Source of the DNA: Escherichia phage MX01
Strand: one strand, 5' to 3'
Length of the DNA: 64,000 nucleotides
Sequence record: NC_031934.1
Part shown: piece after piece, positions 1,282-44,413 of the stretch
Position numbering within the stretch: the stretch's first letter is position 1
How the letters are laid out: each line of letters begins with the position of its first letter
Notes under the pieces: generated by a model
Told to the model about the DNA's origin: nothing
What the model saw: the letters and a program-made list of their open reading frames with translations, nothing else
The model's database searches: none
Position numbers and translations under genes: made by a program

Positions 1282-1509
1282 TTATTTTCCTAACGAAATA
1301 CGAGTAGGTTTTTTACCGAAATAGTCTTCATAAGAACCATCTAAACGACCTGCTTTAGACCGACAATATGAATCGTACTTTTTGTAATAAGTCATCTCAG
1401 TATTATAACGCGGGTGTCTATCAGCCATAATAATACTTAACGGCCAACCTTTGGCATAATCGCGAAGACCATTTATTTTACGAATGTATCTTTTCTTTAA
1501 TTTTAGCAT
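1282..1509 (-). CDS. hypothetical basic small protein
   Basis: 75-aa ORF; ATG overlaps upstream stop (ATGCTAA), suggesting translational coupling. Confidence 0.5.
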   Translation of the reverse strand: MLKLKKRYIRKINGLRDYAKGWPLSIIMADRHPRYNTEMTYYKKYDSYCRSKAGRLDGSYEDYFGKKPTRISLGK

Positions 1510-1727
1510 GAGCTCGGATACCAGATTTTACCATCGGCCTGAGCAACGAAGGTGCGTCCAGCTTCTTCGCCATAACACGAGCTATTCAGCCAATCTTCGA
1601 GACGAACTTCACCGTCATAATCGTCGAGCTCAACACCAAAACTTTGAGCAGAAGCCATATCTTTTACTTTCTTATACAGTGCAGCCAGTTCAAGTGCAGC
1701 TTTTTCTAATTCATTAATATCAGACAT
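1503..1727 (-). CDS. small acidic protein, W-x-S-S-C C-terminal family member 1
   Basis: 74 aa; RBS AAGGTGA; C-terminus ...DGKIWYPSSC. Confidence 0.6.
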   Translation of the reverse strand: MSDINELEKAALELAALYKKVKDMASAQSFGVELDDYDGEVRLEDWLNSSCYGEEAGRTFVAQADGKIWYPSSC

Positions 1728-1738
1728 TTTTTATCACC

Positions 1739-1951
1739 TTAGCAAGACATAGAGGATGTAAACCAGAAACCTTCACCTTCCGGAATACCGTAGTCATCAC
1801 GGACCCATTCGTAATCATCATATTCCGGGTTCTTTGGAGAAATGTATTCTCCACGACCAGAAACACGGAACTCTTCACCCGTTTCGTCAGCCACGGCCTG
1901 GCCTTTACGTACTAATTCGCGGATTTGTTTTTCAATTTCATCAATAGTCAT
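1739..1951 (-). CDS. small acidic protein, W-x-S-S-x-x-C family member 2
   Basis: 70 aa; RBS AAGGAAA; C-terminus ...GEGFWFTSSMSC. Confidence 0.6.
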   Translation of the reverse strand: MTIDEIEKQIRELVRKGQAVADETGEEFRVSGRGEYISPKNPEYDDYEWVRDDYGIPEGEGFWFTSSMSC

Positions 1952-1960
1952 TTTATTTCC

Positions 1961-2242
1961 TTAACATTCAGAAGAAGAGGACACCCATCCACCATTTTCT
2001 AGGCTGGTAGTGTAATCATGTTGGTTTACAATAGCGTACTGAGCTTCACCGTATTCTTCCCAGTGGGCAAGGTCGGCTTTCAAGGCGCCAGGAGAATAAT
2101 AGTCACCGCCCATACCGCGAGCAGGGTATATATTAAAATGAGTCTCATATTTGTTTGCAATTTCCTCAGCACGACGAATAGCTTTATGGATATCATTTAC
2201 TGCTTCAGCCAGCTCTTTATTTTTACGGCAATCATTCATCAT
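1961..2242 (-). CDS. small acidic protein, W-x-S-S-x-x-C family member 3
   Basis: 93 aa; RBS AAGGAAA; C-terminus ...ENGGWVSSSSEC; shares IANKY..F and GDYYSPG motifs with member 4. Confidence 0.6.
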   Translation of the reverse strand: MMNDCRKNKELAEAVNDIHKAIRRAEEIANKYETHFNIYPARGMGGDYYSPGALKADLAHWEEYGEAQYAIVNQHDYTTSLENGGWVSSSSEC

Positions 2243-2251
2243 AGCGTTTCC

Positions 2252-2542
2252 TTAGCACATTGCTGAAGAGGAGACCCAAGCACCAACTGTAACGACGCCG
2301 TTTTCAACTTCACCGCCGTTGTTTTCAATTTCATCTTTAAACCACTGGGAGCATTCATAGCCGATAGGATAATATGTACGTCCTGAACCATAATCACCGG
2401 TACCGAATTGGATACCATACTTATCGGCAATAGCTTCACATTCATGTTCGATGGTATTCGCTTTATTCAGAAGAGCATAGATAGCCTTTTCTGCAGATTT
2501 CTCGTCATTGTGTTCCGGGATTTCGATTTCAATTTTATTCAT
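2252..2542 (-). CDS. small acidic protein, W-x-S-S-x-x-C family member 4
   Basis: 96 aa; C-terminus ...VGAWVSSSAMC; start overlaps upstream stop (ATGA). Confidence 0.6.
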   Translation of the reverse strand: MNKIEIEIPEHNDEKSAEKAIYALLNKANTIEHECEAIADKYGIQFGTGDYGSGRTYYPIGYECSQWFKDEIENNGGEVENGVVTVGAWVSSSAMC

Positions 2543-2892
2543 GATTTACATTCCTTAATAAAGGTTTCAAGGTCATTACGTTTAGTTTGTTTTACATACT
2601 CATTATAATTAGCCATAGCTAAAGCATATCTCTTTTTACGTGGCTTGTTTATTTTATTAGTTTGGGCAATATCAAAGACCCATGGGATAAAAAATCCTAT
2701 TAAAGCCGGAACCCAAATCCATGCAAGGCTCATATCTTCAAACGGATGGCGAGGCATACCATTAATAATCCCACCGACAAGAAATCCAATTATCCCTGCA
2801 GTCATACTAGTAGCAATGCCGAGGAATAAGGAAATAGCTATATCATAATCTGCTAATGCGTAACCAGGGTCGGTTTTACTAGGCTTATGCAT
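2539..2892 (-). CDS. small membrane protein (two predicted TM helices)
   Basis: Track ORF 2539-3066 overlaps the upstream gene; internal ATG 2890-2892 has an AGAGG RBS and sits just after the upstream stop; hydrophobic stretches LFLGIATSMTAGIIGFLVGGII and LAWIWVPALIGFFIPWVF. Confidence 0.5.
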   Translation of the reverse strand: MHKPSKTDPGYALADYDIAISLFLGIATSMTAGIIGFLVGGIINGMPRHPFEDMSLAWIWVPALIGFFIPWVFDIAQTNKINKPRKKRYALAMANYNEYVKQTKRNDLETFIKECKS

Positions 2893-3421
2893 TTTGAACC
2901 TCTTTAGCGTATTCGCGGCATTCAGCAATAAAACGATTAAGCTTCCGTTGTTGTTTTCGAATCTCTGATGTATACTCATTAGCCAAAATAATAAGCTCGT
3001 CTTTATCGTAATTTTTAATATCCGAATAACTCGGGCGGCGGTCGACCATACCAAAGTGGTCACCATTTTCTAACATCAAATAGCATACTAAATGGTAATC
3101 ATCGTCAGCATCAACAAGCTGTTTACAATCACTTGGTTCATTTAAAGCGTATACTGAATAGCATAATCCAGCGAATTCCACTCGTTGAATACCTAGATTT
3201 AAGTCAATAATTTCTAAAGCTTCTGCAAAAGAAAGGTCCTCAGCTAAAGCAAAGATAAAAGGTAATTTGGTAGTATCGCCACGGCTAGATGTTCTGCTTA
3301 AGAAATCGTTTGAATAGCCTAGGTCTTGGCGAATTCTATAAAGAACTGAATTGGTTTCATGGGAAAGACCACTATTTTTAAACCAATCAATATTTGATAT
3401 AAGGTTATCATATAAACTCAT
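2885..3421 (-). CDS. hypothetical protein
   Basis: 178-aa ORF; ATG 3419-3421 with GGAGGAGAGGAG RBS region. Confidence 0.55.
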   Translation of the reverse strand: MSLYDNLISNIDWFKNSGLSHETNSVLYRIRQDLGYSNDFLSRTSSRGDTTKLPFIFALAEDLSFAEALEIIDLNLGIQRVEFAGLCYSVYALNEPSDCKQLVDADDDYHLVCYLMLENGDHFGMVDRRPSYSDIKNYDKDELIILANEYTSEIRKQQRKLNRFIAECREYAKEVQNA

Positions 3422-3469: not shown

Positions 3470-4063
3470 TTACTTAAGTGAATTAATGTAGTCTTCGATA
3501 TCAGCAGAAGTCGTATCCATTCCAACTTGTGGGCCTTTAAACGTTTCTACACGCAGTAGGGTGTCTTCAATATCAATCTTAGTCAGTGCAGCGATTTCAA
3601 CAACATCATCGGCAGTAGCAATACCAAGGGCAGCCATATTACGAGTTTCACGGATGTACTCGAGCTTAACAGCCAGTTCCTGACGAGAGTCATCAAGTTC
3701 CTTAACCTTCAGTTTAATTTCATTACGCATTTCGATATAATCATCGGCTTTCTTACGAAGCTGAGTAGCTGTACGACGATAAAGGAGACCGAGTTTAGCA
3801 TGTACCTGGACATCAGAGCCTTCGGCAATCAGTTTACGAATTTCACGTTCTTTAGAAGCAGCGAGCTGGTCTTTTTCATTAGCCAAAGCACGAATACGTT
3901 TTTCTTCATTCACAGACTTAACATGAGCCGTCTGGAGTTCAGTGATTTTATCAATCAGGGTAGAAGCAGCTTTGGTGTATTGGTCTTCGATTGACAGGTT
4001 CTGAGCCATCGCGGTACCCAGTTTAGAACGGATGAATTCAACGATTTTCTTTAAAGTGTTCAT
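3470..4063 (-). CDS. coiled-coil-rich hypothetical protein
   Basis: 197-aa ORF, heptad-like charged repeats throughout; RBS GAAGGAAA. Confidence 0.55.
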
Positions 4064-4105
4064 AGTATTTCCTTCAGTTGATTAAGATTTATAATCCATG
4101 AGGAC

Positions 4106-4135
4106 ATTATACCCTGTCCTCTGAGGTTTGTAAAC
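4106..4135 (-). promoter_or_regulatory. sigma70-type promoter GTTTACA-N18-TATAAT
   Basis: Minus-strand reading GTTTACAAACCTCAGAGGACAGGGTATAAT upstream of the 4063 start. Confidence 0.4.
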
Positions 4136-4138
4136 ATT

Positions 4139-4537
4139 TTATTTCATTTTTGCGAGGCAAATTTCATTGGCTTCCCATTGAGCTTGCTTAATAATAGCTT
4201 TGGATACAGGAGCCCTTTGGCCATAAGTTTTTGACGTTGAGAGAACAATACATTTGTTTGCCTCATTATGCCATCCCCATGATTTTTCGCCATGAGTACC
4301 TTTAACTACAGCAGACACCTCAACAGAGCAACCACCATCAGAAATCTTGGTTTCGACAACCCATTCATTTCTCTCAGCAGCTTCAATTTCTAATCTAGTT
4401 TTTTCTTCATACATCGCGGCCCAATCAGTTTTTGCCAAGTTGAAAGTAAGAGCTTTCTCTAGTTCTTTGGCATATTTTTGTTGTTCAGGTGTTAATGAAT
4501 TATACAACTCTTGCATTTCTTTATCTTCGATATTCAT
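4139..4537 (-). CDS. hypothetical protein
   Basis: 132-aa ORF; RBS GAGGAGAAC before ATG 4535-4537. Confidence 0.55.
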   Translation of the reverse strand: MNIEDKEMQELYNSLTPEQQKYAKELEKALTFNLAKTDWAAMYEEKTRLEIEAAERNEWVVETKISDGGCSVEVSAVVKGTHGEKSWGWHNEANKCIVLSTSKTYGQRAPVSKAIIKQAQWEANEICLAKMK

Positions 4538-4562
4538 TATGTTCTCCTCAAATTATGGGCTC

Positions 4563-4592
4563 ATAATATCTTAATCATGAGCCCATGTAAAC
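4563..4592 (-). promoter_or_regulatory. sigma70-type promoter GTTTACA-N-TATTAT embedded in a 10-bp inverted repeat
   Basis: Minus-strand reading GTTTACATGGGCTCATGATTAAGATATTAT; inverted repeat ATGGGCTCAT (4555-4564) / ATGAGCCCAT (4577-4586). Confidence 0.4.
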
Positions 4593-4981: not shown

Positions 4982-5536
4982 TCAGTTCCTGTAGAACCGG
5001 AATGGGTTTATGTGGAAGGCTAACATAGCCTTAGGGATTTTACGAGACAAAAGACTCTTAAGTTTCCAACCACAGTATACACGAAGGTAAAAGGTAATCC
5101 CACCTACTTTAAGATACGGAACTGAAGCAAAGACTCCCCATGCTTCGTCATTCCACATCCATAACCATCCATGATGAGCTTTATCAGGAGAACCGGATTC
5201 AACGTCAGGATTACCACGATAATGGAATTCTGAGCTACAATCGCGTCCAAGTTTATGGTAAGCAAAGTTATAAGCTTTATTTCGCCACAGCCAAGCTACT
5301 CTCTGGAGATAAACACCGCCAGGCATTTTCCTGATTTTAGCCCAACGTTTAATATGGCCTTTGTCACCGTCAATTGGATTATCGTATGTCATCATCCAAT
5401 CAAAGCCATAAGGCAATTTACCGGTCTTTTTATTATGAAAAGGGACTACAAAAGGTGCAAGGATAACAGCCAGAACCATAGAGATAAAATCTAGAGGGAC
5501 CAACAGTACCCAACTCAAATATTTTAAAAGTTTCAT
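4982..5536 (-). CDS. hypothetical Trp-rich protein with N-terminal transmembrane segment
   Basis: 184-aa ORF; N-terminal hydrophobic stretch LSWVLLVPLDFISMVLAVILAPFVVPF; AGGAAA RBS; late promoter upstream. Confidence 0.55.
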   Translation of the reverse strand: MKLLKYLSWVLLVPLDFISMVLAVILAPFVVPFHNKKTGKLPYGFDWMMTYDNPIDGDKGHIKRWAKIRKMPGGVYLQRVAWLWRNKAYNFAYHKLGRDCSSEFHYRGNPDVESGSPDKAHHGWLWMWNDEAWGVFASVPYLKVGGITFYLRVYCGWKLKSLLSRKIPKAMLAFHINPFRFYRN

Positions 5537-10152: not shown

Positions 10153-10180
10153 ATTGCTTAAGTCCCAGACAGTGTATAAT
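10153..10180 (+). promoter_or_regulatory. MotA-type middle promoter candidate, antisense to genes 2 and 4
   Basis: ATTGCTTAAG-N-AGTGTATAATGGTCCTA; the 17-nt AGTGTATAATGGTCCTA is identical to the uvsY promoter -10 region, with the same ATTGCT-N16-TATAAT spacing. Confidence 0.35.
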
Positions 10181-44385: not shown

Positions 44386-44413
44386 ATTATAACACACCTA
44401 AATTTAAAGCATA
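44386..44413 (-). promoter_or_regulatory. MotA-type middle promoter candidate for rnlB
   Basis: Minus-strand reading ATGCTTTA-N13-TATAAT. Confidence 0.4.

Follow-up and report, generated by a model that had tools for sequence, protein, structure and literature searches.

A phage family of small acidic proteins with a conserved Trp/Ser-Ser/Cys C-terminal tail is linked to a predicted Pol-beta-type nucleotidyltransferase

Escherichia phage MX01 (NC_031934.1) carries, within the 64,000-nucleotide (nt) stretch analysed here (the window), an array of four small genes at positions 1503–2542 of the minus strand. The array encodes members of a family of small, folded, acidic proteins that appears to be confined to phages, that ends in the tail W-x-[S/A/P]-S-S-x-x-Cys-COOH and that is encoded upstream of a gene for a predicted nucleotidyltransferase. 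We tentatively favor the view that the small proteins and this enzyme form a functional module in which the tail enters the enzyme active site, where it would be the likely acceptor of a nucleotidyl group.

The four open reading frames (ORFs) differ in length and in subfamily but share the same kind of C-terminus. Member 4 (2252–2542; 96 amino acids (aa), isoelectric point (pI) 4.4) is of a GDYGSGRTYYP type and ends in GAWVSSSAMC, member 3 (1961–2242; 93 aa, pI 5.1) is of a YGMGG type and ends in GGWVSSSSEC, member 2 (1739–1951; 70 aa, pI 4.3) ends in GFWFTSSMSC, and member 1 (1503–1727; 74 aa, pI 4.2), from a double-motif subfamily, ends in KIWYPSSC and contains a second, internal copy of the motif, DWLNSSCYGE. 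An earlier note, made from the letters alone, had given these coordinates, lengths (70–96 aa) and C-termini, and had also held that each gene has its own ribosome-binding site, that the proteins are acidic and that members 3 and 4 have the motifs IA(N/D)KY..F and GDY in common. The ORFs and their translations bear out each of these points: an AGGA/GGTGA-type site stands 6–9 nt ahead of every start, with the stop codon of the upstream gene overlapping the ribosome-binding site of the next (TG[CT]TAAGGA), the computed pI is 4.2–5.1 with a net charge of −6 to −10, and both motifs are present in members 3 and 4. The tail had been written as W-x-S-S-x-x-C. A conserved tail ending in Cys is indeed found, but it is one residue longer in members 2–4, which carry the eight-residue W-x-[S/T]-S-S-x-x-C, and it is spacerless in member 1, where W-x-P-S-S-C has no residue between Ser-Ser and Cys.

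The tail pattern in the four ORFs is not due to chance. A stop-to-stop search of all six frames of the window gives 903 ORFs of 30 aa or longer, of which 31 have a final Cys and only the four members match W..S[SA].{0,3}C$. The Ser codons of the tails are drawn from both families, TCN and AGC, which argues that the tail is conserved at the protein level. Each of the four also conforms to the pattern by which the family was defined, a C-terminal W-x-[S/A/P/T]-S-S-x(0-3)-C with the Cys last, and each matches phrog_899 over the C-terminal part of that profile, with E-values of 4.9e-23 (member 4), 4.5e-20 (member 3), 4.7e-14 (member 2) and 1.4e-9 (member 1). These four matches confirm that the array is truly paralogous and place it with the hypothetical proteins resembling RB69 ORF136c, ORF137c and ORF139c. 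The proposal that the family is uncharacterized also stands: phrog_899 is labeled only as of unknown function, scans of the four proteins against Pfam, NCBIfam and PADLOC gave no significant match, and no known family that would explain the termini was found. Literature searches on phrog_899, DUF7275/DUF7277, the RB69 ORF names, phage nucleotidyltransferase and C-terminal cysteine returned no paper on either the small proteins or the enzyme, and neither the tail motif nor the enzyme linkage is recorded in the databases and papers searched.

The family is large. A tblastn search with member 4 found relatives in at least 391 sequenced phages (391 phage records), including Dhakavirus, Mosigvirus, Karamvirus, Aeromonas phages and T4-likes of Klebsiella, Citrobacter, Serratia and Pectobacterium, and searching 1.84 billion representative proteins with a profile built from 14 sequences gave 228 matches at E ≤ 1e-3, each representing a cluster at 50% identity. 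Tail statistics were taken from the best 150 of these 228 representatives. The final residue is Cys in 138 of the 150, and W..SS.{0,4}C stands at the very end in 135, so that the C-terminal motif is retained in homologs; most exceptions have one extra residue past the Cys or are truncated proteins. Within the 135 Cys-ending tails Trp occupies position −7 in 132, Ser position −4 in 134 and Ser position −3 in 131, and position −5 holds Ser, Ala or Pro. In 133 of about 140 proteins two residues separate Ser-Ser from Cys, and some members have a spacer of three. The terminal Cys is the sole Cys in 90 of 147 proteins.

Ahead of the tail, family members share a long helix ending in ..AE.IADE.G..F, often with YGMGGTYYP or GDYGSGRTYYP, and a variable acidic linker that connects this part to the tail and that harbors extra internal W-x-x-S-S copies in 24 of the 150 representatives. 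The median pI is 4.46 and the median charge −8.5, and a 77-sequence alignment has a mean column identity of 25%. An AlphaFold2 model of member 4 is confident (predicted local distance difference test score (pLDDT) 88, predicted template modeling score (pTM) 0.76) and consists of a long N-terminal helix (residues 14–42), a small sheet and a further helix (residues 66–74), followed by a less confident tail. Its only structural matches in BFVD are uncharacterized members of its own family, RB69ORF139c among them. The largest arrays were seen in four metagenomic viral contigs of ~168 kb (L078, L083, L084 and L104), which hold five members upstream of the enzyme gene and a sixth downstream of it, with divergent tails such as WMASASSC, WNSSNC, WQGSSC, WKNSSSYC, WYSSHC and WQPSAGIC.

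The earlier note had described the array as locally duplicated and diversifying, and here our results differ. Member 1 has orthologs in Marfavirus (70% identity) and, at 38–43%, in Karamvirus, Moonvirus, Aeromonas phage 44RR2.8t and Phapecoctavirus; member 2 has one in Marfavirus (39%); member 3 has orthologs in Marfavirus (58%), Mosigvirus (55%) and Moonvirus (61%); and member 4 has one in Mosigvirus (65%) and others in Karamvirus, Marfavirus, Moonvirus, Phapecoctavirus and Aeromonas phages. BLASTP among the four members detected no pair, and in a multiple alignment the others are 27–41% identical to member 1. On the strength of the cross-genus orthologs and the lack of any pairwise BLASTP match, we rejected a recent tandem duplication. 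The array is, as judged by sequence comparison, a set of four old subfamilies and not a fast-diversifying local expansion.

The small genes are consistently found with one other gene. In the window this partner, an RB69 ORF134c-like gene of phrog_2141 with the domain order DUF7277-DUF7275, runs on the minus strand from 619 to the left edge (1–619), so that its first 206 codons are included and the rest lies beyond the window; it is predicted to encode a Pol-beta-type nucleotidyltransferase. As in the window, nine annotated loci from eight genera have family members upstream, and on the same strand, of an RB69 ORF134c relative of ~310–320 aa. We tested the linkage from both sides. In an enzyme-centered set of 80 viral-contig loci, 67 contain one to six family members as found by hidden Markov model, nearly all of them upstream on the same strand and within about 2 kb, and eight of the remaining 13 have divergent members directly upstream that were found by the tail pattern, bringing the total to at least 75 of 80. 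Conversely, in a set of 43 loci centered on small proteins with the YGMGGTY motif, the enzyme lies downstream on the same strand in 41, and the two exceptions are contigs that end just past the small genes. When plus-strand ORFs were clustered across the 80 loci, the small family and the enzyme were the only families common throughout. The number of members per locus is one in 28 loci, two in 28, three in 15, five in one and six in two, and the median gap between the last member and the enzyme is 386 nt, with 17 of 74 loci at 50 nt or less.

The pair is also found together in unlike surroundings. In Aeromonas phages it stands beside nrdD, in a neighborhood unlike the slot between e and the tRNA genes, and the order of small genes first, enzyme second recurs in a Phapecoctavirus (Stephanstirmvirinae) and in an Otagovirus of Pseudomonas. 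The module thus occurs in Straboviridae, Stephanstirmvirinae, Otagovirus and jumbo-phage contigs, and the enzyme is present in 732 phage records. One genome from each of 185,579 bacterial and archaeal species yielded five module loci, all in metagenome-assembled genomes, and the module therefore appears to be essentially phage-only. In Gram-positive phages the enzyme is recognizable by its C-terminal half only and small members were not found, and the syntenic e-to-tRNA region of T4 has neither the small genes nor the enzyme. Wherever downstream sequence is available, the small proteins were never found without the enzyme. The enzyme does occur without the small genes, in a CC31-like locus whose slot holds seven tRNA genes and in a clade of metagenomic contigs that have another gene upstream.

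These loci offer some further details. In the CC31-like Karamvirus contig (L032, IMGVR_UViG_650627040_000001) the tRNA genes for Ile, Lys, Glu, Asn, Asp, Met and Gln lie directly upstream of the enzyme (3612–4564), and the last ORF fragment ahead of the enzyme ends in ...RYTSSC and may be a remnant of a member-1-type gene. In one locus of the metagenomic clade (L074, 4746–5714) the enzyme is split into ORFs of 69 and 252 aa and may be a decaying gene. The position of the array near a tRNA cluster in T4-likes and the tRNA genes in the CC31-like slot raised the idea of a general link to tRNA genes, which we rejected after finding a tRNA gene within about 5 kb in only seven of 58 diverse loci.

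Sequence methods assign nothing to the enzyme past DUF7275 and DUF7277. A Pfam scan of 38 homologs at E ≤ 10 found only these two domains and neither AbiEii/DUF1814 nor any other nucleotidyltransferase model, and the only matches returned by sequence and profile searches of the PDB, to PsaB, are spurious. The AlphaFold2 model of the enzyme is confident (pLDDT 89, pTM 0.84), and its nearest solved relatives are the MenT toxins (MenT1, the nearest, MenT3 and MenT4), ANT(2'') and LnuA, all of which transfer a nucleoside monophosphate to hydroxyl groups. The model has the core fold of the Pol-beta superfamily together with its G-[GS] motif, [DE]-x-[DE] motif and third carboxylate, and the corresponding residues G5-S6, D24-x-D26 and E68 are invariant in the 38 homologs, which reach down to 33% identity. 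The partner is thus predicted to be a Pol-beta-type nucleotidyltransferase. The protein, of ~315 aa, has a large extra helical domain (DUF7275), and invariant residues of the C-terminal domain include K124, H127, K138, R164, D192-H193-D194, H197, E239-E240, E247-R248, S273, S276, G277 and R280. A few GenBank records name the protein 'nucleotidyltransferase'.

From these observations we infer the contact, the chemistry and the downstream targets of a module in which the small proteins would be clients of the nucleotidyltransferase. The conserved Trp would anchor the tail, the flexible Ser-Ser-x-x-Cys end would go into the enzyme active site as acceptor or pseudo-substrate, and a Ser hydroxyl, or else the terminal Cys, would most likely take the nucleotidyl group from a nucleoside triphosphate. 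A single enzyme could mature one to six paralogous small proteins in this way, and their variable acidic bodies would then act on different targets in early to mid infection. We lean toward this reading because the Trp, the Ser-Ser pair and the terminal Cys are near-invariant in a family of such low mean column identity, and because one nucleotidyltransferase stands in obligate company with the family, with several paralogs per enzyme and extra internal copies of the motif. The occurrence of 1, 2, 3, 5 or 6 paralogs per enzyme and the internal W-x-x-S-S copies suggest several substrates or acceptor sites. The small proteins were not found apart from the enzyme where downstream sequence was available, but the enzyme persists without the small proteins, which favors clients over antitoxins. 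The earlier note had speculated that the invariant terminal Cys marks a modification or metal site, and the strict linkage to a nucleotidyltransferase lends indirect support to the idea of a modification site. More doubtful is a fuller version of this reading, an undescribed phage protein-modification system in which a dedicated Pol-beta-type enzyme nucleotidylates the tail Ser or terminal Cys of small acidic proteins, possibly going on to elimination and ring closure, so that the products would be enzyme-matured effectors or carrier-like proteins of many unrelated lytic Gram-negative phages.

Several observations weigh against an enzyme and its clients. In the window, about 880 nt and three unrelated small ORFs separate member 1 from the start of the enzyme gene downstream; the median gap across loci is 386 nt, and only 17 of 74 loci are at 50 nt or less; and the depositors of phages Moon and Schickermooser annotated terminators in the interval that separates small genes and enzyme. 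In member 1 and its orthologs Cys follows Ser-Ser directly, and a single geometric model of the tail must allow both forms. Linkage within the hyperplastic regions of T4-like phages can in part reflect shared ancestry, an account that is weakened because the module is found in unrelated phage families. An electrostatic version of the contact, with an acidic mimic bound to a basic enzyme, was dropped since net charge gives it no support, the median pI of the enzyme being 6.5.

A serious rival, which we consider unlikely on balance, casts the small proteins as antitoxin-like inhibitors or regulators of a MenT/AbiEii-like enzyme and the tail as an unmodified pseudo-substrate or a metal-chelating plug in the active site. 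The nearest solved relatives of the enzyme are toxins, and MenA1, a 68-aa protein with a long-helix build that is encoded upstream of MenT1 in Mycobacterium tuberculosis, blocks the MenT1 active site (PMC10435456). The phage proteins likewise begin with a long helix in the AlphaFold2 model and are encoded upstream on the same strand, and the small gene sometimes abuts the enzyme gene (the loci with gaps of 50 nt or less). The phage module differs from MenA1-MenT1 in being phage-only and in having one to six small paralogs per enzyme; the MenA1 C-terminus is dispensable (PMC10435456), whereas the small phage proteins, acidic and of alpha/beta build, end in an invariant W..SS..C-COOH tail. The small proteins showed no sequence or fold similarity to MenA1, and neither phage partner has sequence or Pfam similarity to its MenAT1 counterpart.

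The remaining alternatives are progressively less likely. Somewhat below the inhibitor model we place stand-alone host-takeover or anti-defense factors, such as nucleic-acid mimics or sponges, which is the reading of the earlier note; their tail would serve their own function (oligomerization, inter-chain metal bridging or host-protein binding), and the nearby enzyme would work in that pathway too but make no contact with them. The acidity of the proteins, their position in an accessory region behind a middle-promoter-like site (see below), their variable copy number between phages and the genes and annotated terminators that separate array and enzyme in some phages all agree with such a role. 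No fold or sequence similarity to the DNA mimics Ocr, ArdA and Arn was found. It is improbable that the tail is like that of a ribosomally synthesized and post-translationally modified peptide (RiPP), with Ser(−3) nucleotidylated and eliminated to dehydroalanine and the terminal Cys thiol then adding to form a lanthionine- or aminovinyl-cysteine (AviCys)-like S-x-x-C ring. The predominant Ser(−3)-x-x-Cys(0)-COOH spacing would fit, as epidermin has it in its terminal AviCys ring and many lanthionine rings share it, and the partner enzyme could provide the leaving group on Ser. However, the neighboring genes include no LanB, LanM, LanKC, LanD, YcaO or radical S-adenosylmethionine gene, only proteins of unknown function, the AlphaFold2 model of member 4 predicts a folded domain and not the leader-core build of RiPP or lanthipeptide precursors, and the spacerless Ser-Ser-Cys of member 1 and its orthologs and the three-residue spacer of some members do not conform to such a ring. 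Least likely is a role in the virion, either as internal proteins packaged in the head or otherwise. The internal-protein genes ipII and Ip9 occur in the same genome region, and several GenBank records use the product names 'tail completion protein', 'major capsid protein' and 'prohead assembly scaffold protein', but these names disagree between records for orthologs and the PHROG has no function. Moreover, none of the four N-termini (MSDINELEK, MTIDEIEK, MMNDCRKN and MNKIEIEI) has the MKTYQEFIAE-like capsid-targeting motif of T4 that is present in the true internal-protein genes of nearby loci, and a virion role leaves the enzyme linkage unexplained.

Enzyme-client pairs of the kind we favor have precedents. 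In the type VII toxin-antitoxin system HepT-MntA, in PII-GlnD and in CitD-CitX, a nucleotidyltransferase of the Pol-beta fold makes a covalent modification at a hydroxyl side chain of a small protein dedicated to it: HepT is AMPylated on Tyr, PII is uridylylated on Tyr, and the small acidic carrier CitD receives a nucleotide-derived prosthetic group on Ser. By analogy, the phage module would use the same chemistry; no homology to any of these partners was detected, though no test aimed at them was made, and the proposed acceptor is the C-terminal Ser-Ser-x-x-Cys tail and not an internal loop. LysW/ArgW are likewise small acidic carriers, with a conserved Trp-containing extreme C-terminus (EDWGE) that is the covalent handle for dedicated enzymes. 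LysW differs in having ATP-grasp partner enzymes, a role in amino-acid biosynthesis and a zinc-finger body, and has no sequence, fold or partner likeness to the phage family. The comparison points to a known kind of system, a nucleotidyltransferase with a small dedicated partner, of which the phage pair itself is undescribed.

Neither partner has an assigned function, and the module occurs in phage groups used in therapy and research, namely Mosigvirus (the RB69 genus), Dhakavirus, Karamvirus, Phapecoctavirus, Acinetobacter and Aeromonas T4-likes and jumbo phages. The near-invariant four-residue signature at the very C-terminus, tied to a single enzyme, can be probed sharply and at low cost. 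Were the tail an acceptor, phage host takeover would gain a new enzyme-client pair, and protein nucleotidylation a new type; were it an inhibitor, lytic phages would have their first native toxin-regulator pair of the MenT kind. In both cases, two sets of 'hypothetical proteins' can be re-annotated, and several wrong GenBank product names are flagged.

The genome setting of the array is that of a T4-type accessory region. The first 3.2 kb of the window are 98.6% identical to Escherichia phage LHE83 and 92–98% identical to other Dhakavirus (Tevenvirinae) phages such as QL01, WG01, Bp7 and IME08. In annotated IME08 this region lies between e/nudE/e.2 and e.6/e.8/tRNA genes, and the equivalent variable accessory stretch in T4 holds e.3-e.5.

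About 60 nt ahead of the member 4 start, within the 3' end of the upstream ORF, there is a site resembling a T4-type middle (MotA-dependent) promoter (2602–2629, minus strand), composed of TATGCTTTA (MotA box), 12 nt and TATAAT. The pattern TGCTTNA-N11-13-TATAAT has three matches in the window versus 0.10 expected from shuffles, the two other full matches to the consensus being at 10155–10180 (plus strand) and 44386–44411 (minus strand), and the looser TGCTTNA-N11-13-TANNNT stands ~57–80 nt upstream of the first array gene in nine of 11 Dhakavirus loci (all except L013 and L015). As a match to the published T4 middle-promoter consensus, the 2602–2629 site may act as a middle promoter for the array. 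Further upstream, a strong sigma-70-like site (4106–4134, minus strand; TTTACA-17-TATAAT, 11 of 12) precedes an e.6-like gene (3470–4063) and might serve the whole leftward gene block as an early promoter; nothing that convincingly resembles a terminator was seen between it and the array. In the region overall, promoter-like sites are no more numerous than in shuffles.

Upstream of the array, a 175-aa ORF (2539–3066, minus strand) overlaps the next upstream gene, of 178 aa (2885–3421), by 182 nt. Because its match to phrog_2330 starts at residue 59, a Met (MHKPSK...), the true gene is probably 2539–2892, encoding a hydrophobic, basic protein of 117 aa; it adjoins member 4 through an ATGA start/stop overlap. 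Between the array and the enzyme stand the ORFs 1282–1509, 922–1272 and 639–878. The first of these (minus strand) encodes a very basic 75-aa protein (pI 10.0, phrog_7065), and its ATG lies within the last codons of member 1 (TCATGCTAA), which suggests that the two are translationally coupled. The family of the 79-aa ORF at 639–878 is present in only 12 of the 80 enzyme-centered loci. In the same block, a conserved gene of unknown function (4982–5536, minus strand) encodes a basic 184-aa protein that has an N-terminal hydrophobic segment and matches Pfam DUF7338 (E 5e-63).

Outside the window, thioredoxin- or glutaredoxin-like genes (nrdC.2, nrdH, 'glutaredoxin-like protein') lie a few genes from the module in Aeromonas phages 44RR2.8t and Aes012 (L004 and L007) and in Pseudomonas phage M5.1 (L134, 1–422), which belong to two unrelated phage groups; in M5.1 one such gene directly adjoins a family member. 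Their presence might be connected with the redox state of the terminal Cys, or may be a coincidence. Finally, GenBank records MT150133, NC_018855, MK295203, OM386655 and others give clashing structural names, 'baseplate hub subunit' as well as the three cited above, to orthologs of member 3, of a neighboring small gene and of the enzyme, and these names look like artifacts of annotation pipelines.

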